Assembly (NCBI GenBank): GCA_963783885.1
Contig: CAWAPJ010000025.1
Location: 1 to 64,000 of the forward strand
Length of the DNA: 64,000 bases
Source of the DNA: Waddliaceae bacterium
GTDB lineage: Bacteria > Chlamydiota > Chlamydiia > Chlamydiales > SLFE01
Direction: 5' to 3'
Below the pieces are notes generated by a model, which was not told the DNA's origin, searched no databases, and was given only the letters and a program-made list of their open reading frames with translations. A program made the position numbers and the translations under genes. Shown piece after piece: positions 1-12,657 of the stretch. Within the stretch, counting starts at the first letter, position 1. Each line of letters opens with the position of its first letter.

Positions 1-112
1 TGAGGGTTGTTTTGCCAACTTGGCGGGCGCCGATAATGGCTACGACGGGAAAATAATTGAGAAATCTTTGCATTTTGTTTTCTGCATACCGGAAAATTCC
101 ATTCAAATCCAT
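1..112 (-). CDS. AAA+ ATP-binding protein (AAA_14/DUF4143-type), N-terminal part, runs off the window
   Basis: Manual translation from the ATG at 112: MDLNGIFRYAENKMQRFLNYFPVVAIIGARQVGKTTL, with Walker A GARQVGKT typical of this family. Not in the ORF track. Confidence 0.75.
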   Translation of the reverse strand, partial: MDLNGIFRYAENKMQRFLNYFPVVAIIGARQVGKTTL

Positions 113-172
113 ACTCTGTCTCCGAATTTTACTGGTATCTTATCTTATTTTTCCATTTTTATGCAATAAGCA

Positions 173-964
173 CTAAAAAAACAGCATCCGTATGCCGACT
201 ACGAAAAGGAAGGCCGCAAAGATCTTTTTAAGGGCTTGAATCGGCAAGAGATAGGCGACTTGAGCTGCTCCCCACGAAAAAAAGGGGCTTGAGAGGTTAA
301 TGCCCAGCACTGCCGGCCAGTAAATATAGCCGCTTGTCCATTCTGGATCGCCAGTTTGATAAGTCCCTGTAAAGTAAAATGTTAAGGTTCCAACTAGCGA
401 GACGATGAATGAAAGGGCAGCGCAAATTCCCACCGCTTGGTAGATCGACAGTTTTCGATAGGAGATCAGAAATGGAACTCCCATAGACCCGGCTCCGATA
501 CCCAAAAGAGATGAGAGTGTGCCGATTATGAGAGAAAATGCCCGTGTCACCTGATCGTTGGGTTTTTCTGCTCGGGATTGCCACTCGATGTTAAAAAATA
601 TTTGCAAAGAGATCAGGAGGGCGAAAATGCCCACAGAAATGCTCAGAACTTTTGATTGAAAAAATCCCGCTACGATGCCGCCTAAAATAGAGCCGACGAT
701 AATCCCCCCTGCCATCAGTCTAAGGACAGGGATGACGACAACCCCGTTGCGGTAGTGGGCCCAGGTAGAAAAAAGAGTTGTCGTCACCATTGAGGCTAGA
801 GAGGAACCGATGGCGAAATGCATGAGGCTGCCGGAGGGAAATCCCATATAATAGAAGGTCGTGGAGAGGAGAGGGACGACCACGAGCCCCCCGCCAACTC
901 CTAAAAGGCCCGCAAAAAGACCCGCCAGAGCCCCGATGCCGAGATAAACCAGTAGTAAAATCAT
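173..964 (-). CDS. TauE/SafE family sulfite/organosulfonate exporter
   Basis: 263-aa polytopic membrane protein with N-terminal GLFAGLLGVGGGLVVVP and a second-half repeat SSLLGIGAG. Confidence 0.85.
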   Translation of the reverse strand: MILLLVYLGIGALAGLFAGLLGVGGGLVVVPLLSTTFYYMGFPSGSLMHFAIGSSLASMVTTTLFSTWAHYRNGVVVIPVLRLMAGGIIVGSILGGIVAGFFQSKVLSISVGIFALLISLQIFFNIEWQSRAEKPNDQVTRAFSLIIGTLSSLLGIGAGSMGVPFLISYRKLSIYQAVGICAALSFIVSLVGTLTFYFTGTYQTGDPEWTSGYIYWPAVLGINLSSPFFSWGAAQVAYLLPIQALKKIFAAFLFVVGIRMLFF

Positions 965-972
965 CTTTTACA

Positions 973-1001
973 TTGAAAAATAGTGTTATAACTGTTAATA
1001 T
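973..1001 (+). promoter_or_regulatory. Putative sigma70/sigma66 promoter for the leader-peptide/brnQ transcript
   Basis: TTGAAA (973-978), 17-bp spacer, TAATAT (996-1001), with TG at 993-994. Confidence 0.4.
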
Positions 1002-1046
1002 GAGGTTTATACGAATTAGTTGTACAATTCAAGGTGTGATTTAACT

Positions 1047-1088
1047 ATGCCAAACCTTTTTACCAATCGATGTTGTTGTTGCCTCTAG
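1047..1088 (+). CDS. Cys-rich leader peptide MPNLFTNRCCCCL
   Basis: ATG at 1047 to TAG at 1088, four consecutive Cys codons TGT TGT TGT TGC, SD-like AAGGTG at 1031-1036, ends 43 nt before the brnQ start. Confidence 0.7.
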   Translation: MPNLFTNRCCCCL

Positions 1089-1124
1089 CGGCAGGCTCAT
1101 TCTTAAACAACAACAAAAGAGGTT
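1053..1124 (+). promoter_or_regulatory. SD-sequestering RNA structure (putative translational attenuator)
   Basis: TGTTGTTGTT (1071-1080) is the exact reverse complement of AACAACAACA (1106-1115). AACCT (1053-1057) pairs with AGGTT (1120-1124), which overlaps the brnQ SD. Inner pair GCCT/AGGC. Confidence 0.65.
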
Positions 1125-1131
1125 AAATCAC

Positions 1132-2241
1132 ATGTCAAAAGCAAAAACATTTTCTCCCTTTACAATAGGACTTGCGTTTTTCTCGATGTTTTTCGGATCG
1201 GGAAATCTAGTCTTTCCTTTATTTCTCGGTCAATATGCCGGGGATAAATGGCCTATCGTAACAATCGGATTTATTCTATCGGGTGTGATCGGCCCCCTTT
1301 TCGGGGTTGTGGCTATGGTGGCCTATCAAGGGGATACAAAGAAATTCTTTTCTACGATCGGTAAGCGGAACGCTTTGATTTTTGTTTCGATTTTGATGAT
1401 GGTCTGGATTCCCTTCGGCGCGGCTCCAAGGTGCATACGGGTCGCCTATGAGTCTTTCAACGCGGCTTTTCCCATCCTGCCCCTTTGGTTTTTCGGCATT
1501 TTGTATTCGGCTTTAGTCTACTTTTCTATTGTCCGCAAAAACAGAATGATCGAGGTTCTCGGCTATTTCCTCACACCTGCCCTTTTGATTTGCCTGGCGG
1601 TTTTATGGATCTTTGGGATGATGACAGCGGAAGCGCCGGCCCCTGCAGACCGGACCGCTTTGAATGTCTTTCACATTGGACTTGCCCATGGTTATGAGAC
1701 CATGGATCTGATCGCCTCTTTCTTCTTTTCGATATCCATTATCAGTGTGATCCAGGCGGAAAAAAAATCTGTGGTCAAAACAATGAAAAAGGCTCTTCTT
1801 TCCGGGTTTATCGGCATGTCGGTTTTGGCCTTCGTTTATGCCGCCTTGATTTTTATGGCTTCTCGAAACGCCGCCCTTCTCGCTCCTCTTGCGAAAGATC
1901 AGCTTCTTCCCTTCATTTCCATGCAGTTTTTGGGCCCCAAACTCAGCCTGATTCCTGTCGGGCTGGTCTTCCTTGCCTGCATCACGACATCTGTTGCCAT
2001 GCTTTCGGTATTTGCCGACTTTATCAAGGAAAATTACGTGAAGCGAGGCAAGTCGAACCTTTCGGTATTATCGGGAGTCGGACTTACCTATTTCCTTTCT
2101 CTGATCACCTTTGACGGCCTGATGGTTGTCACAACACCTATCCTGGAAATCAGCTGCCCTCTTCTCATTCTTTTGGGGATCTACAATCTGGCTAAAAAAT
2201 TCTTTTTCAGCCCCTCTCTTGAAGATGTAAGTATTCAGTAG
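1132..2241 (+). CDS. brnQ: BrnQ/LIVCS family amino acid:cation symporter
   Basis: GLAFFSMFFGSGNLVFP and GYETMDLIASFFF signatures; multiple TM segments. Confidence 0.85.
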   Translation: MSKAKTFSPFTIGLAFFSMFFGSGNLVFPLFLGQYAGDKWPIVTIGFILSGVIGPLFGVVAMVAYQGDTKKFFSTIGKRNALIFVSILMMVWIPFGAAPRCIRVAYESFNAAFPILPLWFFGILYSALVYFSIVRKNRMIEVLGYFLTPALLICLAVLWIFGMMTAEAPAPADRTALNVFHIGLAHGYETMDLIASFFFSISIISVIQAEKKSVVKTMKKALLSGFIGMSVLAFVYAALIFMASRNAALLAPLAKDQLLPFISMQFLGPKLSLIPVGLVFLACITTSVAMLSVFADFIKENYVKRGKSNLSVLSGVGLTYFLSLITFDGLMVVTTPILEISCPLLILLGIYNLAKKFFFSPSLEDVSIQ

Positions 2242-2389
2242 AACTCAAACCGCAGATTATGACCCTAATCCGCTGTGAGACATCTCTAGAAAATAATTAT
2301 TTTTTTCATCTTCTTCGTCATTCATGTCAAAAGACATGACTTCCAAGGAAATAATTGAATGTTTGTTTCCCTGTGGAGAAGGAAAGTTT

Positions 2390-3508
2390 TCAACGCCTTT
2401 TGTGTTCTTCGTCGATTTGTTCGGCAAGGGCGAGGTAGGAGTCGTAGCGAAGGGCGGAGAGCTTGCCCTTTTCAACTGCTTCGATGACGGCGCAGCCGGG
2501 TTCGTGTATGTGGGTGCAGTTGGGAAAGCCGCATTCGGGCAGGTAGGGTTGAAACTCTTTGAAGTAAAAGGGAAGCTCCTCTTTTTCGAGATCCCAGACC
2601 CCAAAGCTTTTGATGCCGGGCGTGTCGATGACAAAGCCGCCGAATTCAAGGGGGATGAGGGTGGCGTAAGTTGTCGTATGAGCCCCTTTGCGGGTACGCT
2701 GCACAACATCGCCAATTTCAAGGTCAAGTCCTGTCAGCCGGTTAATAAGCGATGATTTACCAACCCCCGACTGTCCGGAAAAAACCGAAGCTTTGTCCTT
2801 CATAACCTGTTTGAGGTCCTCCATCCCTTCTCCGGTATCCGCGCTGACGGCGATGACCGGAATTTCGGCTTTTTTGTGGGCTTCCAAAAAATCTTCGAGC
2901 AGCTCTTTTTCTCCATCGCCCCCGAGCAAATCGATTTTGTTGACGACGACGATCGGCGCCATGTTCCCTTTTTCCGCGGCGATAATATAGCGGTCGACAA
3001 GAGGCGGTTTCAAAGGGGGATTGACAACGGAGGCTGTAATAAGAACCTGGTCGATATTGGCGGCGATGAGCTGCTGTTTTTTGTGGGAGATGGTTTCGGC
3101 TCTGGAAAGAGTGGATTTTCGGGGCTGAACGTAGTGGATAAACCCCTCTTTTTCATGGGTGGGTTCGAAAAGGACGAAGTCGCCGACAGTCACAAGGTTT
3201 TTATATTGGGTTTTTGTCTTTTTTAAGAGTCCCCGGAGCTGGCAAAGATACTGCTTTCCCTTTTCGTCAACGATAATCCCTTCGGATTTGATGGAGATCA
3301 CGCGACCCCGCTTAAGCTTTTCCCTGTCGAGCTTAGAGAGGATTTCTTTGGAAAGATCCTCCTGGAATTTTTCAAAATCGGTTTTTTTATACTTGGAGCG
3401 GTCTTTGGCCTCGGCTCGTTTTCTCTGCTGTTTGGAAGTTTTTTTGTCCTTGCGGTAAAACTCTTCCTCGAGATGGCCGGCATCGATTTTTTTCTTCTTT
3501 TTCTTCAT
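2390..3508 (-). CDS. rsgA: Ribosome small subunit-dependent GTPase A
   Basis: Circularly permuted GTPase motifs NKID, GQSGVGKSS, HTTT, DTPG, plus the C-terminal CGFPNCTHIHEPGC zinc site. Confidence 0.95.
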   Translation of the reverse strand: MKKKKKKIDAGHLEEEFYRKDKKTSKQQRKRAEAKDRSKYKKTDFEKFQEDLSKEILSKLDREKLKRGRVISIKSEGIIVDEKGKQYLCQLRGLLKKTKTQYKNLVTVGDFVLFEPTHEKEGFIHYVQPRKSTLSRAETISHKKQQLIAANIDQVLITASVVNPPLKPPLVDRYIIAAEKGNMAPIVVVNKIDLLGGDGEKELLEDFLEAHKKAEIPVIAVSADTGEGMEDLKQVMKDKASVFSGQSGVGKSSLINRLTGLDLEIGDVVQRTRKGAHTTTYATLIPLEFGGFVIDTPGIKSFGVWDLEKEELPFYFKEFQPYLPECGFPNCTHIHEPGCAVIEAVEKGKLSALRYDSYLALAEQIDEEHKRR

Positions 3509-4215
3509 AAAATATACATCAGGATACCACCTGCCACAGCAACATTCAAGGATTCCATGGTTTTCGACATGGGAAGAGAGACCGGCTGTCCGAGGGTGGT
3601 TAATTCCTCGGAAACCCCTTTTGCTTCGCTTCCAAGTATGAGCAGCCGTTTTTCAGAGGGTTTCACTTTTTCGGGAGGGACTCCGGCAAGGTCTGCGATC
3701 AGGATCTGGAAATCGTTTTTTTTGCAAAAAGCGGTGAAGTCATCGAGCTTTCCCAGGGTATAAGGGAGTCTGAATGTCGCTCCTTTGGCGGCTCGAAGGG
3801 CCTTTTCGTTGAAGGGGTCGCAGCAGCTCGCCAGCAGATAAATTCCCTCCCATCCGAAGGCAAGAGATGTACGGAGCAGGGTTCCAAGATTTCCGGGGTC
3901 GTTGATCCCGTCGAGAACCAGAATTTTACTTTTCGTTTCCAATGAAGATTCCGGCGGCATTTCCGCAATGGCTAAAATTCCTTCGGGATTTTTTGTGCGG
4001 GAAATTTTCTTCATGACAGTTTCGGTAACAAGAAAAATTTCATCTGCCTCAAGGGATTTCGGAATGAGAGCCTTATCGACAGCGAGGAGTGTTTTGACAG
4101 TTTCCATCTCGCGGATGATTTTGATTCCCTCAACGACCACTTCCCGGTGCTCGTAGCGGTATGGACGTTTGTCTTGAAGTTTGACAATATGTTTGACCAA
4201 GCGGTTTTTAATCAT
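3505..4215 (-). CDS. TrmH/SpoU family RNA methyltransferase
   Basis: LDGINDPGNLGTLLRT, ILGSEAKGVS and ESLNVAVAGGI SPOUT motifs. Start set at ATG 4215; the ORF track extends to 4305. Confidence 0.9.
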   Translation of the reverse strand: MIKNRLVKHIVKLQDKRPYRYEHREVVVEGIKIIREMETVKTLLAVDKALIPKSLEADEIFLVTETVMKKISRTKNPEGILAIAEMPPESSLETKSKILVLDGINDPGNLGTLLRTSLAFGWEGIYLLASCCDPFNEKALRAAKGATFRLPYTLGKLDDFTAFCKKNDFQILIADLAGVPPEKVKPSEKRLLILGSEAKGVSEELTTLGQPVSLPMSKTMESLNVAVAGGILMYIL

Positions 4216-5428
4216 GCGCCAGATTCCAGAGATTTGTCTTTTTGAGGCTGTCGATGACCTCCTTTGTGGTGTGGAGCTTTTCATCGATAGCGACCCTTTC
4301 GGCAAGCTTTAGAAGTTCTCCCATGCGCTTGCCCGGTTTTATTCCTTCCTGCATCAGGTCTTTTGAGGCGACGACAGGAGTCTTTTCTATGATTCTGTTG
4401 ATGTGGGGAAGAAGCCCCTGCTTTCGCATCCGATGCTCTTTGAGAAAGGAATCGGGCTTTTCTTGTTTTGCTGCCAGGATTTTTAGGCAAAGGTCGGAAT
4501 CCGGGTGGGCGTAAACATGGCTCCAGTCATAGGCGTCGGGCTTTTCCAAATGTTCAATATCATAGAGGAATTGAGCGAATCTAAGATCCCGTTTGCTTGT
4601 TTTCAATTTGCGGCATAAATCTTCGACCTCTTCTCGATTGATATCGGGAAAGAGCTGGAGGAGATAGGCGATTGTCGGAGCTTTTTCGGGCATTTTGCGA
4701 AAAGATGCAGTTCGTTCTTTGATTTCGTTTAAGTGAACATTTTGAAGCCAGGGAAAGATTATGCTCAAAAGCCCAAGCCGGTGCATTTCGACAAGCGCCC
4801 AGTCAAACGAAGGATAAGCAGCCATTTTATTAAATTCCTGCCAAATCCTTTCAATTGAAACGGCAGGAAATAGGGATTCGGCATTGGCGACTATTGCGTT
4901 TTCAGTTTCCGGGTCGATGTGGAAGCCGAAGCGGCATGCGAAACGGACAGCCCGGACCATTCTTAAACGGTCTTCAAAAAAACGTTCGTACGGATCGCCG
5001 ATTGTACGGATCATCCCCCGACTTAAATCTTCCTTTCCGCCGACAAAATCTAAAATCCTCTCATTCAGCGGATCGTAAAACATGCCGTTGATGGTAAAAT
5101 CGCGCCTTTTGGCATCTTCTTCGGGAGTGGAAGGTTCGACGGCCGTCGGTGAGCGCCCATTTTCATAGCCGATATCCTTTCTGAATGTGGCGATTTCGAA
5201 AGCGCGGCCTTTTTCATGAATGATGACAACGCCGAAGGCAATGCCGACAGTGACAGTTTTCGGAAACAGCCCGACAATCGTTTCAGGCTCTGCGTCAGTG
5301 GCAATATCGATATCGTCTGAGGGGTGCCCGAGCAAAAAATCGCGGACGCAGCCCCCCGCAAAATAGGCCGTATGCCCTTCATCGACCAATTTTTGCACAA
5401 TTTTAGTTGCTATTTCTTTGGTGACCAT
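4208..5428 (-). CDS. cca: CCA-adding tRNA nucleotidyltransferase / poly(A) polymerase family
   Basis: AGGCVRDFLLG, DIDIAT, RRDFTINGM and EDRLRMVRAVRF motifs. Start uncertain (5428-5467). Confidence 0.88.
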   Translation of the reverse strand: MVTKEIATKIVQKLVDEGHTAYFAGGCVRDFLLGHPSDDIDIATDAEPETIVGLFPKTVTVGIAFGVVIIHEKGRAFEIATFRKDIGYENGRSPTAVEPSTPEEDAKRRDFTINGMFYDPLNERILDFVGGKEDLSRGMIRTIGDPYERFFEDRLRMVRAVRFACRFGFHIDPETENAIVANAESLFPAVSIERIWQEFNKMAAYPSFDWALVEMHRLGLLSIIFPWLQNVHLNEIKERTASFRKMPEKAPTIAYLLQLFPDINREEVEDLCRKLKTSKRDLRFAQFLYDIEHLEKPDAYDWSHVYAHPDSDLCLKILAAKQEKPDSFLKEHRMRKQGLLPHINRIIEKTPVVASKDLMQEGIKPGKRMGELLKLAERVAIDEKLHTTKEVIDSLKKTNLWNLAHD

Positions 5429-5554
5429 ACCCTTATGATACACTGGCGGGTATTTTTCCATGTGCAATTTTCATACTTTCATAAAAAGAAGAGACTTTGA
5501 TATAGTTCCTCTATGTTTTTTTCTAAATTATACAAGATTTTAGGTATTTAGTTT

Positions 5555-6187
5555 ATGGAAAACTTAGCATTAATTGAAGGGAGCAGCACAAGCGCAGGCC
5601 TGCTAATTGCGATTGGCGCTCAGAATGCCTACGTTCTCAAACAAGGCATTCTTAAAAATTATGTTTTTACAACTGCGCTTTTTTGCTCTGTTGTTGATGC
5701 AATTTTGATTTCTATAGGCGTAGGTGGCGTTGGGGATCTCATTTCGATGAATCGAGTGGCGCTCTACATTGCCGCATGGGGTGGGGCTGCTTATCTTTTT
5801 TGGTATGGTTTTAGGGCATTTAAATCCTCTTTGAGCTCTGAGGGACTGCAAGTCAGTCAAGATAATCCGATGGTAAAACCTTCTTTTAATCAGACATTGC
5901 TGACCCTTGCCGCAGTTTCATTGTTGAACCCTAATGTGTATTTGGATACTGTTGTTCTGCTTGGCACCATTTCTTCGCAATTTTGCTTTCAAGATCGCAT
6001 TTATTTTGCGATTGGGGCGATAGCTACATCTTTTATTTGGTTTTTCAGCATTACATATGGAGCGCGGTTCCTCGCGCCTTTGTTTGAAAAGCCGGCCGCC
6101 TGGAAAATCCTGGATTTTTTTATCGGATGTATCATGTGGAGCATCGCCGCTTCTTTGATTCTCAATATTGATAAGCAATGCAGTTAA
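5555..6187 (+). CDS. argO: LysE/ArgO family basic amino acid exporter
   Basis: LLIAIGAQNAYVLKQG and LLNPNVYLDTVVLLG motifs, plus a C-terminal WKILD..IG..MW segment. Confidence 0.85.
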   Translation: MENLALIEGSSTSAGLLIAIGAQNAYVLKQGILKNYVFTTALFCSVVDAILISIGVGGVGDLISMNRVALYIAAWGGAAYLFWYGFRAFKSSLSSEGLQVSQDNPMVKPSFNQTLLTLAAVSLLNPNVYLDTVVLLGTISSQFCFQDRIYFAIGAIATSFIWFFSITYGARFLAPLFEKPAAWKILDFFIGCIMWSIAASLILNIDKQCS

Positions 6188-6198
6188 AGGAGTAACAA

Positions 6199-6933
6199 AT
6201 GAGTCCCGATTCCTACTTGAAATTTGCTGATCGGAAATTGATTTCAGTAAATGAAAATAGCACGCCGTCCCAAAAGGCCTTTCATATTCATTCGCAATTA
6301 CGTTCGATGGTCATGAGCAGACATTTTCCTTGCTCGGGAGCGAAGACTGCGTTTAGCCAGGGAACTTACCGCTATGGTGTTTTTCAAAAAATGGGTGAAC
6401 AAGCTTCGACAAGGGAACTTGGCTCTGCCCTAAAGGCATTTATCAAAGAACGCCCCAATCTCAACATCGGCTACAATACGTTTATTGCCTCATTTTTGGA
6501 AAAGCCTCCTGGCTCATCTTTGGAATTTACGGAAATGCTTTGGCATCAGCTCCAGGTGCTTCACGACATTGATGATGCCGAATGGGATTCGGCAGTTTCT
6601 TCAGATCCCGAGTCCCCTGAATTTTCATTCAGCTTTGGAGGATGTTCGTTTTTTGTTATTGGACTGCACGCCTGCAGCCCTCGCTACGCACGTCGTTTTG
6701 CCTTTCCGACTTTGGTGTTTAATCCTCACGATCAATTCGAGCTGTTAAGAAAGAAAGGGGATTTTGAGAAGTTTAAAGAGATCGTCAGGAAACATGACTT
6801 TGCCCTTCAGGGTTCATGCAATCCAATCCTTGAAAATCACGGGCTTTCATCCGAAGCCAAACAATACTCGGGCGAACCTCTCGACAGTGAGTGGAAGTGC
6901 CCTTTCAAACACAAAGCAAAAAAAGGAGATTAA
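6199..6933 (+). CDS. YqcI/YcgG family protein (DcsA/GntA-like heme-dependent guanidine N-hydroxylase)
   Basis: FPCSGAK, DPESPEFSFSFGG.SFFVIGLH...PRYARRF..PTLVFN.H.QFE and EAKQYSG segments, characteristic of the family. Confidence 0.8.
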   Translation: MSPDSYLKFADRKLISVNENSTPSQKAFHIHSQLRSMVMSRHFPCSGAKTAFSQGTYRYGVFQKMGEQASTRELGSALKAFIKERPNLNIGYNTFIASFLEKPPGSSLEFTEMLWHQLQVLHDIDDAEWDSAVSSDPESPEFSFSFGGCSFFVIGLHACSPRYARRFAFPTLVFNPHDQFELLRKKGDFEKFKEIVRKHDFALQGSCNPILENHGLSSEAKQYSGEPLDSEWKCPFKHKAKKGD

Positions 6934-6934
6934 T

Positions 6935-7678
6935 ATGACAATGGCAATCAAACAGAATACCTGCGGACTCAGATTAGTTGTTTCGGAAAATGTACAGAAG
7001 CTCGGCATTCTTCATCCCATTGCCTGTCTAATCAAAAATGTCACTGTACAACCGGGGAAAGCAGTAGCTTTGGATGAAGAAATAGAGACCTTAATGGGCA
7101 AAATCGCAACTCAGAGGGATCAATTTCTCAATAAACCCGAAGTGCAGGGATTTCGCTCCCTTTTCAACGCGATGGGATATGCTGATCAAACGCCTGCAGG
7201 AGAACGTCTTTTCGATTCTTTTGCCCAAAGAGGATTTAAACGCATCGACAATATTGTCGACGCCTATAATGTTGTTGCTCTTGAGACTGTTTCGGGTTTA
7301 GGGATGCATGACGCAGATAAATTCCTCGAAGAGTCCAAACCCTTGTATGTTTGGCGCGCAGAAGGGGGGGAAAAGATAATTCCCATGTTTGATAAGAAAT
7401 ACAGAAAAGTCAAAAAAGGGGACATTCTTTACGGAATGAAGGATGAAAACATGGCTCGTCCCATTGCTTGGCTGGGAAAACGCGACAAGGATAGTGATGA
7501 ATTTAAGGTGACTAAAGACACTACTTCGCTTCTGTTTGTTGTCCTTGGAAACGAAAAGACTACCAAAGAATACAACAATAATATTTGCCAGCGCACACTT
7601 GATCTGATCAAACTCAGCTGCCCTGAAGCTGAAATGGAAATGGTTAATGTAGAAAAAGACGGGTCATCTTGTAATTGA
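6935..7678 (+). CDS. Stand-alone B3/B4 (PheRS-beta editing-like) domain protein
   Basis: PAGERL...IDNIVDAYNVVAL....LGMHDADK...AEGGE and KVTKDTTSLLFVV pattern. ATG 6935 follows AAGGAG; the ORF track start at 6764 overlaps the upstream gene. Confidence 0.75.
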   Translation: MTMAIKQNTCGLRLVVSENVQKLGILHPIACLIKNVTVQPGKAVALDEEIETLMGKIATQRDQFLNKPEVQGFRSLFNAMGYADQTPAGERLFDSFAQRGFKRIDNIVDAYNVVALETVSGLGMHDADKFLEESKPLYVWRAEGGEKIIPMFDKKYRKVKKGDILYGMKDENMARPIAWLGKRDKDSDEFKVTKDTTSLLFVVLGNEKTTKEYNNNICQRTLDLIKLSCPEAEMEMVNVEKDGSSCN

Positions 7679-7692
7679 GGATTAACACTGAT

Positions 7693-7739
7693 AGCAATCC
7701 CTCTTTATAACAGTTAGGAATAAAGAGGGAATTGCTTTT
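7693..7739 (+). terminator. Rho-independent terminator closing the argO-YqcI-B3/4 operon
   Basis: Stem AGCAATCCCTCTTTAT / ATAAAGAGGGAATTGCT (one bulge) followed by a short T run. Confidence 0.65.
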
Positions 7740-7839
7740 GCGCTGACGGACTAATTTTTACTTTCTCATAAACAATAAGTTATATTTTTAGCAAATAACA
7801 AAGCTTTATTTTCTTTCAAAATTCGGATATCCTTGCCGT

Positions 7840-9531
7840 ATGGGATCTGTGATTTGCGTTTTAAAAGACGATGTCATCAATAAGATTGCCGCCGGAGAAG
7901 TGGTCGAGAATCCCGCATCGGTTGTGAAAGAGCTTGTCGAAAACTCCCTTGATGCCGGGGCAACCGACATCTCTGTCGAAATCAAGGGGGGCGGCCGCCA
8001 ATTGATTCGCGTGACTGACAATGGCGTTGGCATGAGTCCAGACGATGCGCTCCTTTCGGTCAAGAGGCACGCGACGTCGAAAATTGCCAATATCGATGAC
8101 TTAAATCAATTGAATACCATGGGGTTTCGGGGGGAGGCGATAGCTTCGATCGCCTCCATTTCCAAGCTCACGCTGATTACAGGCCAAGGCGGAGGTTCGG
8201 GAACCCTTGTCTTTGTCGACGGAGGCAAAGTTGTCAAGCACGCTCCTGTCGCCGCTTCACAAGGGACGGTTATTGAGGTCAAGTCCCTGTTTTTTAATGT
8301 TCCCGTGCGCAAAAAATTTCAGAAATCCCCCGCCAGAGACAGTGCGGAGATATTTAAAATCGTCAGTATGATGGCGCTCGGCAATCCGGGGGTGAAATTT
8401 CAGCTTATCCGTGACGGGGAGACAGCTCTCGAGGCTTCTGTCTCGGCAGGATCATTTGACAAGCAGCTTCAGGAAAGGATCTCTTCTGTGCTGAGCCGGG
8501 ATTTTTTGACATCTTGCCTCCCCCTGAAAAGTGAAAACATTGAGGGATTTGTCGGCAGCCCTTCGACAACCCGGCACAACCGTTTGGGACAATACCTGTT
8601 TATCAACAGGCGCTGTGTTATATCCCCTCAGATTTCCCGGGCTGTCAGGGAAGGGTATGGAACGACCATTGCTCCTCAGAGATATCCGGTTTTTGTCCTC
8701 CACATGACCATGCCCGGCTTTGATGTCGATGTCAATGTTCACCCCCAGAAAAGGGAAGTGAGACTGCGGGATGAAGAATCAGTGGTTGGTTTAGTTAGGG
8801 AAGCTGTCAGCCAAGCTCTTAGAAAAAAAGAGGCGAAAATGGTCAGCGTCTCACCAAGGTTCACTTCTTATACCCCCAATTTTGAACCGGTTTCCAAAGT
8901 TGAAGAAACCGTTAGCGCTTACTCCGTACCTCTAGAGGTGAGTCATCCAGAATTCGATTTTGCCGAGACTGCCGGGGAAACAGAACATCTGCGTGTGATT
9001 TACACGCTCCCGGGGTATATTCTTGTAGAAAAAGGAGGAGAACTCCTCATCATCGACCAGAGGCGCGCACATCACCGCGTCCTGTTTGACAAGCTGACCG
9101 AGACGAAAGGATGCCCCTCGGAAAGGCTCTTAATTCCCCAGAATATCGAGTTGACAAAGATTGAAACGGAGACTTTGAGGGAGAGTCTTTCCCTGCTCAA
9201 GTCGCTGGGTTTTGAAATCAGGGAGTTCGGGCCTCAAGTTTTTGTTATCGATTCTATTCCTCCGAGCTTTTCAAATAAGGATATTCCGAGTATGATCAGA
9301 GAATCCCTTGAGGATTTACGGGAGTTTCCAGCGCTCTCTGTTGCTCAAAAGGCTGCGCTGGCGGCAAAAATTTCCCTAAAAGGAGCTGTTTCAAGCCGCG
9401 CACGTTTGGGACAAGTCGAGGCGGAAATGCTCGTAAAGGATTTGTGGAAGACGACCTCGCCGGATCAAAGTCCCAAGGGGAAGAACATTTGGACGGCGGC
9501 CACACCCGAGGCAATCGGCGGATTATTGTGA
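7840..9531 (+). CDS. mutL: DNA mismatch repair endonuclease MutL
   Basis: IAAGEVVENPASVVKELVENSLDAGA, GFRGEA and DVNVHPQKREV motifs, plus a C-terminal DQRRAHHR endonuclease-like motif. Confidence 0.95.
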   Translation: MGSVICVLKDDVINKIAAGEVVENPASVVKELVENSLDAGATDISVEIKGGGRQLIRVTDNGVGMSPDDALLSVKRHATSKIANIDDLNQLNTMGFRGEAIASIASISKLTLITGQGGGSGTLVFVDGGKVVKHAPVAASQGTVIEVKSLFFNVPVRKKFQKSPARDSAEIFKIVSMMALGNPGVKFQLIRDGETALEASVSAGSFDKQLQERISSVLSRDFLTSCLPLKSENIEGFVGSPSTTRHNRLGQYLFINRRCVISPQISRAVREGYGTTIAPQRYPVFVLHMTMPGFDVDVNVHPQKREVRLRDEESVVGLVREAVSQALRKKEAKMVSVSPRFTSYTPNFEPVSKVEETVSAYSVPLEVSHPEFDFAETAGETEHLRVIYTLPGYILVEKGGELLIIDQRRAHHRVLFDKLTETKGCPSERLLIPQNIELTKIETETLRESLSLLKSLGFEIREFGPQVFVIDSIPPSFSNKDIPSMIRESLEDLREFPALSVAQKAALAAKISLKGAVSSRARLGQVEAEMLVKDLWKTTSPDQSPKGKNIWTAATPEAIGGLL

Positions 9532-9538
9532 GGAAAGT

Positions 9539-10648
9539 ATGGATTATCAGAAACGGCTTTATGCTTTAGGTGAAATCCTCGAGGAAGACTCCATCGACGG
9601 CATTCTGATTGAAGAGCCTATCGACATTTATTATCTCACCGGCATCGAGCTGTCGACAGGCCGGTTGATTGTACACAGCCGAGGAGCTCATTTGGTTGTT
9701 GACGGCCGCTATTTCGAGGCCTGTTCCGAGGTGAATTTTCTCAATGTCGTTCTTTGGGATCCCGATGTCCTCTACGATTTGCTTCTCGATGATTTATCCC
9801 ACATCAAAAGCTTTGCTTTTGTCAGCGAAAAAACTTCTTATCAGCGCTACACTGATCTCAAGAAAATTGTCGACAGAGTCTTGCAAGAATCCCTTAAGCG
9901 GGAACTTGAGCTGATGCCTTGCGATGATTTTGTCCTTCAGCTTCGCAGTGTGAAGAATCCCGAAGAGATGGATCGTCTGGCCGAAGTCGCCGAGCTTGGA
10001 TCGAAAGGTTTTGATTTCATTTGTGAATACCTTAAGGAAGGCGTTACCGAGCTGGATGTGGTCAGGGAGCTGGACATTTTTTGGAAGAATCACAATGCCA
10101 AGGCCTTTGCCTTTGATCCCATTATCGCCTTTGGTCCCGGAAGTTCCATGCCCCATTATCATCCGACAAATCGAAAACTCGAAAAGGGGATGCCTGTTTT
10201 AATCGATATCGGAGTGACGCTCAATCATTATCATTCGGATATGACCCGCGTTGTTTTCTTCGGGGAGCCCGATCCTAAAATGAAAGAGATCTATGAGATT
10301 GTCAAAGGAGCTCAGGAAGCAGCTCTTAGGATATGCAAACCGGGAACCCGGGCAGGCGATCTTGATATGGAAGCGCGCATTTGGATTACCGACCGAGGTT
10401 ACGGAGAAAATTTTAGTCACGGCCTAGGGCACGGCATCGGACTTGAGGTGCATGAGCTTCCTGTGATCCGCAGCGCTTCCCAATACGGCGCTGTCGTTTT
10501 GCAGCCGGGAATGGCAATTACGGTCGAACCCGGCATTTATCTTCCTAAGTTAGGAGGCGTTCGTATCGAAGACACCATAATCATCACCGAAGAGGGCCAC
10601 CGCAACCTCACTAACCGCCCCAAAGAATTCAAAGTGCTCACACCATAA
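9539..10648 (+). CDS. pepP: Xaa-Pro aminopeptidase (M24 family)
   Basis: YHSDMTR, HGLGHGIGLEVHE and TVEPGIY...GGVRIED motifs. Confidence 0.9.
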   Translation: MDYQKRLYALGEILEEDSIDGILIEEPIDIYYLTGIELSTGRLIVHSRGAHLVVDGRYFEACSEVNFLNVVLWDPDVLYDLLLDDLSHIKSFAFVSEKTSYQRYTDLKKIVDRVLQESLKRELELMPCDDFVLQLRSVKNPEEMDRLAEVAELGSKGFDFICEYLKEGVTELDVVRELDIFWKNHNAKAFAFDPIIAFGPGSSMPHYHPTNRKLEKGMPVLIDIGVTLNHYHSDMTRVVFFGEPDPKMKEIYEIVKGAQEAALRICKPGTRAGDLDMEARIWITDRGYGENFSHGLGHGIGLEVHELPVIRSASQYGAVVLQPGMAITVEPGIYLPKLGGVRIEDTIIITEEGHRNLTNRPKEFKVLTP

Positions 10649-10649
10649 A

Positions 10650-11951
10650 CTAAAATTTACGCCGCCCAATGTCATTAAACTTGAGGGTTTTTAAAGCGTC
10701 CCACAATTCTTTGTTTTTCCATTCCACCTTGTAAATACCATTGGTGTAAGTCAAGATCAAAAGATCTTTTACTTCCGTAAGTTTTTTCCGGGGTCCCGGG
10801 TAAGTGATTTTTTGGAGTGTCACCTTTCTGGGTTTGTTCTGTTCCACCACGAAAAAAAGAGAGTCGGGATTTTTGCAACGAAAGCCAAAAAATAGACTTT
10901 TTGCGCTTTTCAGGAAAGTTTTGTCTTCAAAGTGGGAATGGGTGATCAAATCAGGAGTATCTGCATCGATAGATTTACAGGACTGCTGTGAATATTTCTT
11001 TTGAATTTTGTCCCAGAGGGATTCAACGATGGAGGGGGACGCCATCTGTCTGACGATACCGTCTGCCCAAAGGTAAAGAGGTTTTTTTTCCGATTTAGCG
11101 GCCATAATTTTGAGCACTGCTGGCCCTTGACCAAGAATTTTCCATCTATTATTGACTTGTTGCACATTGGCAAGATCACCTGGAGAAAGAAAGGAAAAGA
11201 TATGGACCATGATTTCATTTGGTATCTTTGCCTCAAGGGGATAAGACAAAGTGACTTTGTAACTTATAGAGGAGAAAGTCAAATGGCTTTTCCCTGTTGT
11301 GATAAGAGTTAACAGATCCTTCCAGTTTTTTTCCTGATGTAAATAAATGTTCTCATGTTCAAATTTTGTCGTTAAAAAGAGATTATTATAACGAGATGAA
11401 TCTTTAGAAAGAGTAATGCTTTGTTGCCAATGGGGACTTCCAATTTTGTTCTCAAAGAGAACATACAAGGCTCTCTTAAGGAATTCATCACCATATGCCC
11501 AAAGGCCAATTGCAGGTCTATCCTTATAGGTCCCGAATAAAAAAGTCTTGTGTGAAAAATCCATATCCCAAGGATATTGGAAGGGAGTTGTATTCATCCT
11601 AAAGTTGTCGGGATGGCAGAGTTTGATCAGTTTTTGCAAAATTTTGATCGCTTTGCCATTGATTACTTCATTAATATCTGCCTGACTATCGTCTCGAGTC
11701 AATTGGAGAATATGGTTCACTACTTTTTTAATTGTGGGCAATTTTCTCCAGTCTTCTCGGGAAAAGTCGGAAATATCAAAGGCTGATTGGCCTAGGCCTT
11801 TATTTCTTAAGAGGAGGCGCCAATTCTTGCTCACAAGGTCGAGCGGCACAAGATCTAAAGGGTCGAAATTGGAGAAAATATGGAAAAGCGTTTTGGTCGG
11901 CAGTGGAAAGGAAAATATTTTTTTGGGATTAAATACGGAATTAACAGTCAT
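10650..11951 (-). CDS. F-box protein with two F-box motifs (candidate effector)
   Basis: LPTKTLFHIFSNFDPLDLVPLDLVSKNWRLL near the N-terminus and IPNEIMVHIFSFLSPGDLANVQQVNNRWKIL mid-protein. Confidence 0.75.
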   Translation of the reverse strand: MTVNSVFNPKKIFSFPLPTKTLFHIFSNFDPLDLVPLDLVSKNWRLLLRNKGLGQSAFDISDFSREDWRKLPTIKKVVNHILQLTRDDSQADINEVINGKAIKILQKLIKLCHPDNFRMNTTPFQYPWDMDFSHKTFLFGTYKDRPAIGLWAYGDEFLKRALYVLFENKIGSPHWQQSITLSKDSSRYNNLFLTTKFEHENIYLHQEKNWKDLLTLITTGKSHLTFSSISYKVTLSYPLEAKIPNEIMVHIFSFLSPGDLANVQQVNNRWKILGQGPAVLKIMAAKSEKKPLYLWADGIVRQMASPSIVESLWDKIQKKYSQQSCKSIDADTPDLITHSHFEDKTFLKSAKSLFFGFRCKNPDSLFFVVEQNKPRKVTLQKITYPGPRKKLTEVKDLLILTYTNGIYKVEWKNKELWDALKTLKFNDIGRRKF

Positions 11952-11964
11952 AATTTTTGAAAAG

Positions 11965-12657
11965 TTATATCAAAAAATACTCTTTATTATCAACGATAAC
12001 GACCGGAAGATCGGAGAGTCTGATGTTTCCTTTGCTGAGCATTTCCAGGGCAGCAGGAAAAAGAGTATGCTCAAATTTTATTTTAAGTTTTTCATGGATT
12101 TCCTCATGAGAAAGTCCGGGAAAGTGAGAAAGATGGAGGGGGGCAGAAATTGCAATCGGGGCGCCGCAGTCGACATTTCTATCGACAATATGAACAGTGC
12201 TGGCAACCGTTTTTTCTCCATTCTCGATAGCCAATTGCACCGCATTGATTCCTTTGTAACGAGGTATGCCCTGATTGTCCTTGATGGTCAGGTCAGCGGG
12301 ATGGATGTTGAGGCCGGGGAATTTTTCAACGAAAAATACTGGAGATATTTTCATAAAGCCGCTGTAGATGAGCGCGTCGATTTTGAGCTTTTCTAAATAG
12401 GCGGCAATCTCCTCAAAACGCTTTTGTCGGTTTTCCTTTCCTTTGTACGCCCCGGGGAAACACTTCCAAAGCAGTCCGAACTCTGCTGCCAGAGTTTCGG
12501 CGCTGCTGTTTGGGTTGTCCGTGACGATCGCGGCAAAGTTCAGGTTGAGATACCGCCTTCGGTTTTCCAAAAGGACTCGGGCATTGCTACCTGCTCCCGA
12601 CATCAGAATGGCGAGCTTTGGCTTTTGCTTGAATAAGTTTAACAGTTTTTCCGGCAT
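11965..12657 (-). CDS. purN: PurN-like formyltransferase
   Basis: LAILMSGAGSNAR, SGFMKI, LNIHPADL and STVHIVDRNVDCGAPI motifs. The true start is probably ATG 12657 because the extension to 12765 lies in a MITE. Confidence 0.75.
   Translation of the reverse strand: MPEKLLNLFKQKPKLAILMSGAGSNARVLLENRRRYLNLNFAAIVTDNPNSSAETLAAEFGLLWKCFPGAYKGKENRQKRFEEIAAYLEKLKIDALIYSGFMKISPVFFVEKFPGLNIHPADLTIKDNQGIPRYKGINAVQLAIENGEKTVASTVHIVDRNVDCGAPIAISAPLHLSHFPGLSHEEIHEKLKIKFEHTLFPAALEMLSKGNIRLSDLPVVIVDNKEYFLI

Follow-up and report, generated by a model that had tools for sequence, protein, structure and literature searches.

A hydroxylase and B3/4 gene pair linked to a LysE-type exporter in a Waddliaceae bacterium: a candidate system for making and proofreading an N-hydroxylated arginine analogue

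The operon described here, located between cca and mutL in the genome of a Waddliaceae bacterium, is a conserved two-gene core plus a lineage-variable transporter. The core encodes a predicted thiolate-haem guanidine N-hydroxylase of the YqcI/YcgG family and a free-standing B3/4 protein with the fold of CtdA, and this combination also turns up in microbes of unrelated lineages. This suggests that organisms which make a toxic arginine mimic protect their own translation from it. The operon lies in a window of 64,000 nucleotides (the whole stretch of DNA analysed), and the original prediction had read it as a candidate minimal system in which an ArgO exporter, a YqcI/YcgG N-hydroxylase and a CtdA-like B3/4 protein produce an arginine analogue and protect the cell from it.

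Organisation of the operon and its surroundings

The three genes are all encoded on the forward strand: gene 1 (5555-6187, 210 aa; open reading frame and PF01810) for a LysE/ArgO-subfamily amino-acid exporter, gene 2 (6199-6933, 244 aa; PF08892) for the predicted hydroxylase, and gene 3 (6935-7678, 247 aa; PF03483) for a B3/4 protein belonging to a small uncharacterised clade. The TAA stop codon of gene 1 (6185-6187) is separated by 11 bp from the ATG of gene 2 at 6199, and that of gene 2 (6931-6933) by 1 bp from the ATG of gene 3 at 6935. Both starts are preceded at 6 nt by an AAGGAG Shine-Dalgarno sequence on the same strand (6187-6192 and 6923-6928, the latter within the end of gene 2); the start of gene 3 was taken to be the ATG after this motif and not the in-frame TTG upstream at 6764. 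The operon is closed by an intrinsic terminator on the forward strand (7693-7739), consisting of a bulged hairpin of 16+6 bp at 7693-7736 and a U-run to 7739. Its folding energy is -21.5 kcal/mol (z = -3.65, equalled by 0 of 200 shuffles), and a simple terminator scan passes over it, since that scan admits only shorter loops. The flanking genes, recognised by Pfam, are cca upstream on the reverse strand (4208-5467) and mutL downstream on the forward strand (7840-9531). The predicted layout of three co-directional genes, with its gaps, Shine-Dalgarno sequences and terminator, is thus borne out by the reading frames, the sequence and the folding, and the LysE, YqcI_YcgG and B3_4 families assigned to the three genes all exceed the Pfam cut-offs.

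The divergent spacer of 87 bp between cca and gene 1 contains a sigma-70-like promoter candidate on the forward strand (5478-5506, TTCATA-17-TATAGT with a TG extension), found by consensus scan only and not significant alone, because 4 such sites were found against 4.9 expected in shuffles. Rfam elements were not detected between 5300 and 7900 at E <= 1, and therefore no riboswitch leader is assigned; according to Rfam and the list of open reading frames, neither a guanidine riboswitch nor a regulator gene is present in the cassette. A repeat search around the cassette gave neither flanking repeats nor mobile-element scars. Near-identical DNA is present in Logan contigs from four runs belonging to three studies. 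Two of these contigs span the passage from cca to gene 1 (5356-5634 and 5369-5684) and another one spans the junction of genes 1 and 2 (5795-6284); among the matches listed, no contig spans 6926-6994, and other parts are also uncovered.

The cassette is absent from the cca/mutL site of the sister genomes. In the sister species G001, homology to the window breaks just beyond the start of cca, and an arginase-like gene, a TyrP-like permease and an EamA transporter stand exactly at this site. The window's own genome carries the same arginase-like/TyrP-like/EamA unit on contig C28, together with a TauD-family oxygenase.

The predicted N-hydroxylase

The protein encoded by gene 2 matches PF08892 with an E-value of 2.3e-53 (181.6 bits, cut-off 27) and NCBIfam model NF041366 with 250.5 bits (cut-off 145). 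Cys45, in an FPC motif, and Cys234-Pro235-Phe236 (CPF) are shared without exception by the 24 relatives in the alignment. Scanning genome contigs with this sequence alone gave no relatives; alignment-based scans did. The AF2 model (pLDDT 87.3) has five PDB matches at E <= 0.001, all of them AglA entries, with TM values of 0.74-0.77 for four of the five and of 0.60-0.62 for 9uba, at an identity of 18-20%. AglA, ChmN, GntA and DcsA are thiolate-haem guanidine N-oxygenases, in which the N-terminal haem-ligating cysteine is Cys44 of AglA and Cys47 of ChmN, and the characterised members of the family, as these sources describe them, are all biosynthetic N-oxygenases acting on free substrates (PMC12866846; 10.1101/2024.01.24.577118). 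The identification of gene 2 as a YqcI/YcgG N-hydroxylase therefore stands at family level, on the hallmark haem-thiolate cysteines, the Pfam and NCBIfam models and the AglA-like fold; as a prediction from sequence and structural model, a thiolate-haem N-hydroxylase with this fold holds with limits.

The limits concern the substrate. In the tree, gene 2 sits in an unresolved polytomy with a large uncharacterised group of YqcI-DUF1989 proteins, and its nearest relatives outside the B3/4-linked group are uncharacterised YqcI-DUF1989 pairs from soil bacteria. Given this polytomy and the low identity to AglA, it is therefore only the context that points to arginine. GntA is the pre-guanitoxin N-hydroxylase, which acts on enduracididine and is encoded in the guanitoxin cluster. 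This name, given by NCBIfam, was rejected as over-broad for gene 2, whose neighbours are the exporter, B3/4, cca and mutL genes with no guanitoxin cluster; the model is wider than its label, because the GntA name is attached to relatives across many phyla.

The B3/4 protein

Gene 3 matches PF03483 (B3_4) with an E-value of 1.5e-12, above the Pfam cut-off. Its AF2 model (pLDDT 92.5) finds CtdA as the first PDB fold matches in Foldseek (9mkl and 9f7e), with PheRS beta next. The superposition on 9mkl gives TM values of 0.73 (query) and 0.79 (target) over 231 columns at 12% identity, the identity to 9f7e being 14%, and 231-237 aligned columns of 227-231 residues cover the whole CtdA fold. At sequence level the relationship is remote: a phmmer search with gene 3 did not match CtdA at E <= 1, and with the family profile the E-value is lower for PheRS beta (4.8e-7) than for CtdA (0.023 and 1.3).

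CtdA is a canavanyl-tRNA(Arg) deacylase that protects against canavanine, with structures from P. canavaninivorans (9f7e) and S. enterica (9mkl); Tyr104 and Asn105 are described as catalytic, together with Gly116-117, and the strictly conserved Cys166 tunes the specificity for canavanine against arginine (PMC10018355; PMC12449066). All 13 relatives share D109, Y111, N112 and G123 with the gene 3 protein, and alignment through a CtdA-1-like chlamydial protein equates Y111, N112 and G123 with Y104, N105 and G116-117 of CtdA. The position of Cys166 aligns to Ala174 within an indel-rich stretch, and no cysteine is conserved there across the 13 relatives. The original naming as a CtdA-like B3/4 protein was consequently right about family and fold and over-precise as to CtdA, given the lack of a sequence match and of Cys166. 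Judged from sequence and model, a stand-alone B3/4 protein with the CtdA fold and a Tyr-Asn/Gly core, but without the specificity cysteine, is a description that holds with limits.

A second clade, CtdA-2, has been described as retaining N105 and G116, having lost C166, including archaeal members and being about 20% identical to CtdA-1, and its specificity is stated there to be undetermined (PMC12449066). The gene 3 clade fits all four descriptors, and gene 3 may belong to CtdA-2, beside which it is set by this description and not by sequences. Distant relatives of gene 3 are fused to parts of MetRS, a class-II aminoacyl-tRNA synthetase, a YbaK-type editing domain or a tRNA_bind domain (from a domain scan of 10 proteins of unusual length among the 150 representatives listed), and these fusions tie the wider B3/4 family to tRNA. 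Representatives at E <= 1e-30 number 70. The idea that gene 3 substitutes for an editing domain that PheRS lacks was considered and rejected. Both the B3_4 and B5 domains of PheT are absent from the assembly, which is 88.9% complete, so that pheT is simply unassembled; relatives have frames of pheT length. A predicted complex of the gene 2 and gene 3 proteins scored 0.00 against a mark of 0.32, which weighs neither way.

The exporter

ArgO and LysE are basic amino-acid exporters controlled by the LysR-type regulators ArgP and LysG, and ArgO of E. coli confers canavanine resistance. Gene 1 matches PF01810 (LysE) with an E-value of 1.7e-33 and 116.2 bits (cut-off 25.6), and reaches only about 35 bits against RhtB/LeuE models. 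Its scores against the NCBIfam models for the L-lysine exporter (TIGR00948, 184.4 bits, cut-off 213.65) and for ArgO (NF006801, 172.7 bits, cut-off 298) fall below both equivalog levels. The family and the LysE/ArgO subfamily of the predicted ArgO exporter are retained, then, and the name ArgO claims too much; as predicted from sequence, the assignment of gene 1 to this exporter subfamily holds within those limits.

Homologues of gene 1 have an adjacent LysR gene in G021 and in the chlamydial genome G038. In the latter, the genes stand in the order LysR, a CtdA-1-like B3/4 protein that matches CtdA at 1e-13, and LysE, with no hydroxylase, and therefore editing and export have been paired independently.

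Linkage of hydroxylase and B3/4 genes elsewhere

Eight further distinct loci, no two of them near-identical, and one fusion protein contain the hydroxylase-B3/4 pair. In L002, L008, L025, L058, L148 and L150 a B3/4 gene of the gene 3 clade comes next after the YqcI gene in the same orientation (overlapping it by 4 nt at L002 and at L008), and one arylformamidase-like gene lies between them in L005 and L026; the gene order around this hydrolase varies in L005, L026 and L058. Within the phylum, PF08892 occurs in 3 of 400 scored genomes (G000, G288 and G398), in all three directly followed by the B3/4 clade. The fusion, P0135, joins YqcI and B3/4 in 508 aa; it is a single sequence on one contig of 3.5 kb and could be the result of a lost stop codon. 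Fusions of B3/4 to an arylformamidase-like Cyclase domain are represented by P0238 and its cluster mate P0282 (424 aa). Twelve weaker loci on genome contigs (L013-L024; 23-31% identity, mostly partial and mostly archaeal) were left out of these context counts.

The trio, as opposed to the pair, is not conserved: none of 80 metagenome loci and no genome locus has LysE beside the pair, and the transporters at other loci are TyrP-like, EamA or MFS proteins. Co-occurrence of all three genes thus failed for the exporter and held for the two core genes. That the system is minimal is also doubtful, because relatives carry an additional arginase-like or arylformamidase-like hydrolase. The arginase-like gene directly adjoins the B3/4 gene in L002, G288 and G356.

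SznF-type clusters carry out streptozotocin-like N-nitrosation of arginine derivatives, and SznF is a diiron/cupin enzyme. A member of the gene 3 clade is found in an Oscillatoria MAG in a cluster with an SznF homologue, a Rieske protein, a MOSC protein and EamA; the SznF homologue is full-length (E-value 4.6e-134 to SznF) with the B3/4 gene two genes away, an independent pointer to N-oxygenated arginine. In L003 a member of the clade adjoins a P450; L006 has one close to a GBBH-like 2OG oxygenase that is accompanied by EamA. Five haloarchaeal loci have the B3/4 gene with no adjacent oxygenase; all three of the genomes checked for it carry YqcI at another place, one of them in degraded form.

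Proposed model and alternative explanations

The preferred reading, about as likely as not, is that an N-hydroxy-guanidino amino acid is produced in the cell, that tRNA mischarged with it is proofread and that the compound is exported. The YqcI/YcgG enzyme, to judge from its family, would N-hydroxylate the guanidino group of free L-arginine or of a very close guanidino amino acid, with electrons from a redox partner presumably encoded outside the cassette. The product would be an arginine look-alike that arginyl-tRNA synthetase loads onto tRNA(Arg). The B3/4 protein, with the CtdA core but another specificity pocket, would hydrolyse the mischarged tRNA and so protect the producer's translation, and the LysE/ArgO-type exporter would pump out the analogue or surplus basic amino acid. 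Against this model speak the low identity of gene 2 to AglA and its place in the YqcI-DUF1989 polytomy, the absence of Cys166, the haloarchaeal B3/4 genes that have no oxygenase next to them, the lack of conservation of LysE with the pair and the absence from the window's cassette of the hydrolase found in relatives. A literature search found no papers on N-hydroxy-arginine as the product, on its charging onto tRNA(Arg) by ArgRS or on host modulation.

The fusions of B3/4 to the hydroxylase and to the arylformamidase-like enzyme fit a role within the pathway at least as well as proofreading. B3/4 could release a product made on aminoacyl-tRNA, cleave a small-molecule intermediate (an ester or an amide) by hydrolysis, or hand the substrate over to the hydroxylase, and the overlapping genes of L002 and L008, the 1-bp gap in the window and the changing order around the hydrolase would agree with this. 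We consider it unlikely as a whole: the clade occurs with SznF, with P450 and alone in haloarchaea, so that B3/4 is not a dedicated YqcI subunit, the one YqcI fusion has the weakness already mentioned, and the characterised YqcI enzymes act on free substrates (PMC12866846; 10.1101/2024.01.24.577118). Chance neighbourhood of three genes with unrelated roles, to which the variable exporter partner would lend some colour, is scarcely credible in view of the 11- and 1-bp gaps, the single terminator and the recurrence of the pair in eight further loci and in all three genomes of the phylum sample.

Two other readings keep arginine analogues at the centre. The cassette might detoxify an external analogue, such as canavanine or a product of a host or competitor, which the exporter would expel, B3/4 edit and the haem enzyme inactivate. 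The canavanine resistance due to ArgO and the G038 module, which has no hydroxylase, are in its favour. The protection against canavanine by CtdA itself (PMC10018355; PMC12449066) points the same way. It is quite improbable, nevertheless, since the characterised YqcI/YcgG enzymes are all biosynthetic (PMC12866846; 10.1101/2024.01.24.577118), the B3/4 clade adjoins producers of N-oxygenated arginine such as the SznF homologue, gene 3 has neither Cys166 nor a CtdA sequence match, and the cassette has no guanidine riboswitch or regulator. Alternatively, N-hydroxy-arginine would be only an intermediate, converted by an arginase-like enzyme into ornithine and hydroxyurea or consumed in an arginine-catabolic shunt, with B3/4 guarding against what leaks. 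DcsA and DcsB do produce hydroxyurea from arginine (PMC10214352), arginase-like genes adjoin B3/4 in the three relatives named above, and the arginase-like unit occupies the cca/mutL site in G001 and is present on C28. However, the arginase-like proteins are similar to typical arginases of bacteria (1cev at 2.5e-50; 194 bits with the RocF model, below its cut-off of 227.6), no N-hydroxy-arginine hydrolase is found among their 44 PDB matches, and a DcsB-type hydrolase is thus unsupported by the PDB ranking. Besides, G001 has neither hydroxylase nor B3/4 but retains the arginase unit, which therefore works independently of them, and the window's operon terminates without a hydrolase gene; we regard this reading as very doubtful.

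Implications

Production coupled to proofreading, if true, would be without precedent: a proofreading enzyme for aminoacyl-tRNA would be encoded beside the maker of the offending amino acid in order to protect the producer itself. A literature search, which did not extend to supplementary genome-neighbourhood data, found no paper describing the hydroxylase-B3/4 pairing. A clade with the CtdA fold and without the canavanine-specificity cysteine is linked here to arginine N-oxygenases of two types not related to each other, YqcI/YcgG and SznF. For the substrate of the second CtdA clade, a question posed in 2025 (PMC12449066), this linkage supplies a concrete candidate that is cheap to test, namely N-hydroxylated arginyl-tRNA(Arg). 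It also places a member of the large and mostly uncharacterised YqcI/YcgG family in a small natural gene context that is not an antibiotic cluster. The setting is that of environmental chlamydia-like bacteria of obligate intracellular type, where a metabolite active on arginase or NO synthase would be of biological interest. It is a long shot that B3/4 founds a new trans-editing specificity class, an N-hydroxy-arginyl-tRNA(Arg) deacylase serving as producer immunity, and that exported N-hydroxy-arginine, or hydroxyurea from the arginase-like enzyme, is a small-molecule effector with which the intracellular bacterium acts on the arginase, NO synthase or ribonucleotide reductase of its host.

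Comparison with known systems

Gene 2 has in common with AglA, ChmN, GntA and DcsA the FPC cysteine, the CPF motif and the AglA-like fold; unlike them, it is not surrounded by an NRPS, phosphonate, cycloserine or guanitoxin cluster, and its partners are B3/4 and an exporter. The DcsA/DcsB step, from arginine through N-hydroxy-arginine to hydroxyurea and ornithine, is matched by the YqcI-arginase adjacency in the relatives L002, G288 and G356, whereas the window's operon has no arginase gene and the flanks examined show none of the remaining dcs genes. One SznF cluster contains the same B3/4 clade, with a diiron/cupin enzyme where the window's operon has a haem enzyme. ArgO of E. coli and LysE of C. 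glutamicum belong to the same PF01810 subfamily as gene 1, but they are paired with LysR-type regulators, whereas gene 1 has no adjacent LysR and its divergent neighbour is cca. With CtdA, finally, gene 3 shares the free-standing size (about 230-250 aa), the entire fold down to the helical insert within the B3 part, the Tyr-Asn pair of the catalytic core together with the GG-motif glycine, and, by context, the link to arginine analogues. It differs from CtdA in its identity of 12-14%, the missing Cys166 and the missing guanidine riboswitch, and the neighbours of its clade are N-oxygenases, whereas those of CtdA form a canavanine-utilisation operon.

Organisation of the operon

The cassette consists of three head-to-tail genes on the + strand, coding for a LysE/ArgO-type exporter (gene 1, 5555-6187, ORF of 210 aa), a YqcI/YcgG hydroxylase (gene 2, 6199-6933, 244 aa) and a B3/4 protein (gene 3, 6935-7678, 247 aa). 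Gene 1 ends with TAA at 6185-6187 (+), 11 bp ahead of gene 2, whose ATG at 6199 is preceded by AAGGAG (6187-6192, +); the gene 2 stop TAA (6931-6933, +) is separated by 1 bp from gene 3, with a further AAGGAG (6923-6928, +) before its ATG at 6935. Folding energies revealed a bulged hairpin (7693-7736, +) followed by a U-run (-21.5 kcal/mol, z -3.65; none of 200 shuffles equally stable), which is absent from the simple terminator scan because its loop is long. The flanking genes, identified by family matches, are cca (4208-5467, -) and mutL (7840-9531, +), and no Rfam element was found within 5300-7900. The co-directional operon of the original prediction, with its spacings, ribosome-binding motifs, terminator and flanks, was thus confirmed from sequence and folding.

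Near-identical DNA is present on contigs from four public metagenome runs (three studies), which join cca to gene 1 and gene 1 to gene 2; among the matches listed, none of these contigs bridges 6926-6994. In two runs of one study the contigs stop at 6926, within the A-run and SD ahead of gene 3, and run on as G/C-homopolymer-rich letters dissimilar to the window. These ends are probably a sequencing artefact or, less likely, a variant junction.

The encoded proteins

Gene 2 matches PF08892 (E 2.3e-53), and its Cys45 (FPC) and Cys234-Pro-Phe are unchanged in 24 of 24 relatives. When its AF2 model (pLDDT 87.3) was compared with the PDB, AglA structures were the only matches (five entries), with TM 0.74-0.77 for four of them and 18-20% identity. 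AglA, ChmN, GntA and DcsA are described as thiolate-haem guanidine N-oxygenases, the haem ligands being Cys44 in AglA and Cys47 in ChmN (PMC12866846; 10.1101/2024.01.24.577118). The YqcI/YcgG assignment holds. The NCBIfam name GntA was rejected, because this label is given to relatives of many phyla and guanitoxin-like neighbours are absent.

Gene 1 matches PF01810 LysE (E 1.7e-33) and scores 184 bits with TIGR00948 and 173 bits with the ArgO model, versus around 35 bits with the RhtB/LeuE models, remaining under both equivalog cut-offs (213.65 for TIGR00948 and 298 for ArgO). These scores place it in the LysE/ArgO subfamily; the exporter had been predicted as ArgO itself, which the equivalog cut-off does not sustain.

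Gene 3 matches PF03483 (E 1.5e-12). The best fold matches of its AF2 model (pLDDT 92.5) are structures of CtdA, the canavanyl-tRNA(Arg) deacylase, over the whole length (9mkl, TMq 0.73/TMt 0.79; 9f7e). CtdA was not retrieved by phmmer at E <= 1, and the B3/4 family profile placed PheRS beta (4.8e-7) ahead of CtdA (0.023 and 1.3). All 13 relatives compared retain D109, Y111, N112 and G123. The clade includes haloarchaeal members and, compared by description only, it and the traits of gene 3 seem to match CtdA-2, presented as an uncharacterised clade in PMC12449066.

Linkage of the hydroxylase and the B3/4 protein

The B3/4 clade is rare. A word-indexed search of 5.8 billion proteins gave 12 non-self homologues (E <= 0.001), a set of 1.84 billion proteins gave 70 representatives (E <= 1e-30), and the genomes of ~185,000 species gave 11 full-length relatives. 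Beyond the window, a YqcI gene is followed by a same-strand B3/4-clade gene at eight loci, none of them near-copies, either directly (L002, L008, L025, L058, L148 of genome G288 and L150 of G398) or after one arylformamidase-like gene (L005, L026). Within the phylum, PF08892 occurs in 3 of 400 scored genomes (the window's own, G000, together with G288 and G398), directly upstream of a B3/4-clade gene in all three; a fourth genome of this sample, G356, has a B3/4 gene truncated by the contig start. Both domains are fused in P0135 (508 aa), possibly through a lost stop codon, since the protein is known from just one contig of 3.5 kb, and P0238 is a Cyclase-B3/4 fusion with a cluster mate, P0282, of 424 aa. 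A tree built from 84 YqcI sequences joins the window's hydroxylase to L002, L008 and L025, all B3/4-linked (SH-aLRT 100), with the other B3/4-linked sequences placed in the same unresolved polytomy; B3/4-linked YqcI may have a single origin.

Among 80 metagenome loci found through the hydroxylase, 70 carry a DUF1989 gene at most 2.5 kb away, mostly immediately downstream, three carry a B3/4 gene and seven neither; the two partners are mutually exclusive in this sample, and LysE is found in none of the 80. From the recurrent pair loci and the missing LysE it follows that the conserved unit is the hydroxylase with the B3/4 protein, not the trio; the original prediction called for a search for the trio in other genomes, and it is the pair that recurs. 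YqcI-DUF1989 is itself a widespread uncharacterised pair, in which the DUF1989 gene is UAAP-like; its loci (among L027-L104) often have an Orn/DAP-decarboxylase-like or GT2 gene upstream.

Other partners of the B3/4 clade

In an Oscillatoria MAG (L004, 377-5535) co-directional genes encode an SznF homologue (E 4.6e-134 to SznF, full length), a Rieske protein, a B3/4 protein, a MOSC protein and an EamA transporter. SznF is described as a diiron/cupin enzyme N-oxygenating methyl-arginine, and this cluster would be an independent pointer to N-oxygenated arginine. As MOSC enzymes reduce N-hydroxylated compounds, it may hold two protections against an N-hydroxy-guanidine product. The B3/4 neighbour is a P450 in Sorangium (L003), and upstream of the B3/4 gene in L006, from a Granulosicoccaceae MAG, are EamA and a GBBH-like 2OG oxygenase; YqcI is found in neither the Sorangium nor the Oscillatoria genome. 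An oxygenase is adjacent in none of five haloarchaeal B3/4 loci, and YqcI is located elsewhere in all three haloarchaeal genomes tested, one copy being degraded. These five loci share a ~310-aa HTH regulator with a homologue adjoining the L005 pair. HTH_3 regulators lie at 3468-4436 in L005 and at ~6700-7630 in L007 and L009-L012, with 28-32% full-length identity between the proteobacterial MAG (L005) and haloarchaea.

Ten proteins of unusual length, from 150 representatives listed, were scanned for fusions, and distant B3/4 relatives were found fused to MetRS parts, a YbaK-type editing domain, a tRNA_bind domain and a class-II aaRS, which ties the wider family to tRNA. The partners in the seven fused proteins (P0222, P0234, P0256, P0272, P0248, P0277, P0225) include a class-II Asp/Lys/Asn-type synthetase and a GFO/IDH/MocA oxidoreductase. 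To our knowledge, such architectures have not been described.

Genomic setting

PF08892 was found in none of 40 relatives, two same-genus genomes among them. The distance between cca and mutL is 44 bp in a genome of the same family (G004); in one of the same genus (G001), with colinear flanks at 86-89% identity, 5.2 kb replace the 2.3-kb cassette. This segment (L113, G001:C4:74000-90000, 7245-12393) encodes a PQQ-type propeller, a TyrP-like permease, an arginase-like protein and EamA. The pepP match in L113 is in three overlapping pieces and that to the window ORF at 10650-11951 is fragmented, which may reflect frameshifts. This 433-aa ORF (-) shows by eye two F-box-like stretches (LP..I...IFS.L...DL); F-box-type proteins are common in amoeba-associated bacteria.

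The same permease/arginase-like/EamA unit starts another contig of the window's genome, a second arginine-related island (L133, G000:C28:1-9000, 1-4559) with the TyrP-like permease (cut), the arginase-like gene, a TauD-family 2OG oxygenase, EamA and a MerR/TipAS regulator. The arginase-like proteins are most like ordinary bacterial arginases. The cassette and this unit are fused in relatives, in the orders YqcI, B3/4, arginase-like, permease (L002); MFS, YqcI, B3/4, followed by arginase-like and EamA in convergent orientation (G288); and B3/4, arginase-like, LysE-family gene, permease, EamA (G356). The cassette, with a G+C of 0.40-0.45, somewhat below its flanks (0.46-0.52), and no flanking repeats, is an accessory island of patchy distribution within the phylum. 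In the G000 assembly (88.9% complete) neither pheT domain, B3_4 or B5, was found, so the gene is apparently unassembled.

Proposed function and alternatives

The best-supported reading, to which we give even credence, is that the haem enzyme acts as an N-hydroxylase on arginine or a closely related guanidino amino acid, a substrate suggested by context only; the product would mimic arginine at ArgRS, the CtdA-fold protein would hydrolyse the mischarged tRNA, and the transporter, LysE/ArgO-type in the window, would remove the compound. No report of N-hydroxy-arginine charging by ArgRS was found in the literature, and the cassette itself encodes neither a redox partner nor a hydrolase; both points count against this reading. 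Small-molecule host modulation by the product is possible. Locus L129 of another chlamydial genome (G038:C17:78000-92000, 6041-8252) has a divergent LysR, a CtdA-1-like B3/4 gene whose product matches S. enterica CtdA at E 1e-13 and retains the specificity Cys, and an overlapping LysE/ArgO-like gene, the hydroxylase being absent. It looks like a canavanine-type edit-and-export module, and demonstrates an independent pairing of editing with export. The LysE match contains a TAA in one search.

The B3/4 protein could instead be a component of the pathway, which fits its fusions with pathway enzymes and which we consider rather unlikely; detoxification of an externally derived analogue is somewhat less likely still. 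N-hydroxy-arginine might also be an intermediate that an arginase-like enzyme converts to hydroxyurea and ornithine; this route has a precedent in DcsA/DcsB (PMC10214352), and we judge it improbable. Adjacency by chance, with the pair recurring beyond the window, is very hard to credit.

Comparison with known systems

Among the main texts and abstracts searched, no paper was found that describes a conserved coupling of a CtdA-fold clade with arginine N-oxygenases. Each of the three parts is of a known kind, gene 2 coding for a YqcI/YcgG enzyme, gene 3 for a CtdA-like B3/4 protein and gene 1 for a LysE-family exporter. Gene 3 had been proposed as a CtdA-type protein, and the family, the fold over the whole length and the residues agree with this: through a CtdA-1-like chlamydial protein, the invariant set was matched to CtdA, Y111, N112 and G123 corresponding to Y104, N105 and G116-117, which are reported as important by mutagenesis. 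The proposal falls short in the sequence, where phmmer gave no match, identity to 9mkl and 9f7e is 12-14%, and the alignment shows no counterpart of Cys166, described as strictly conserved in CtdA.
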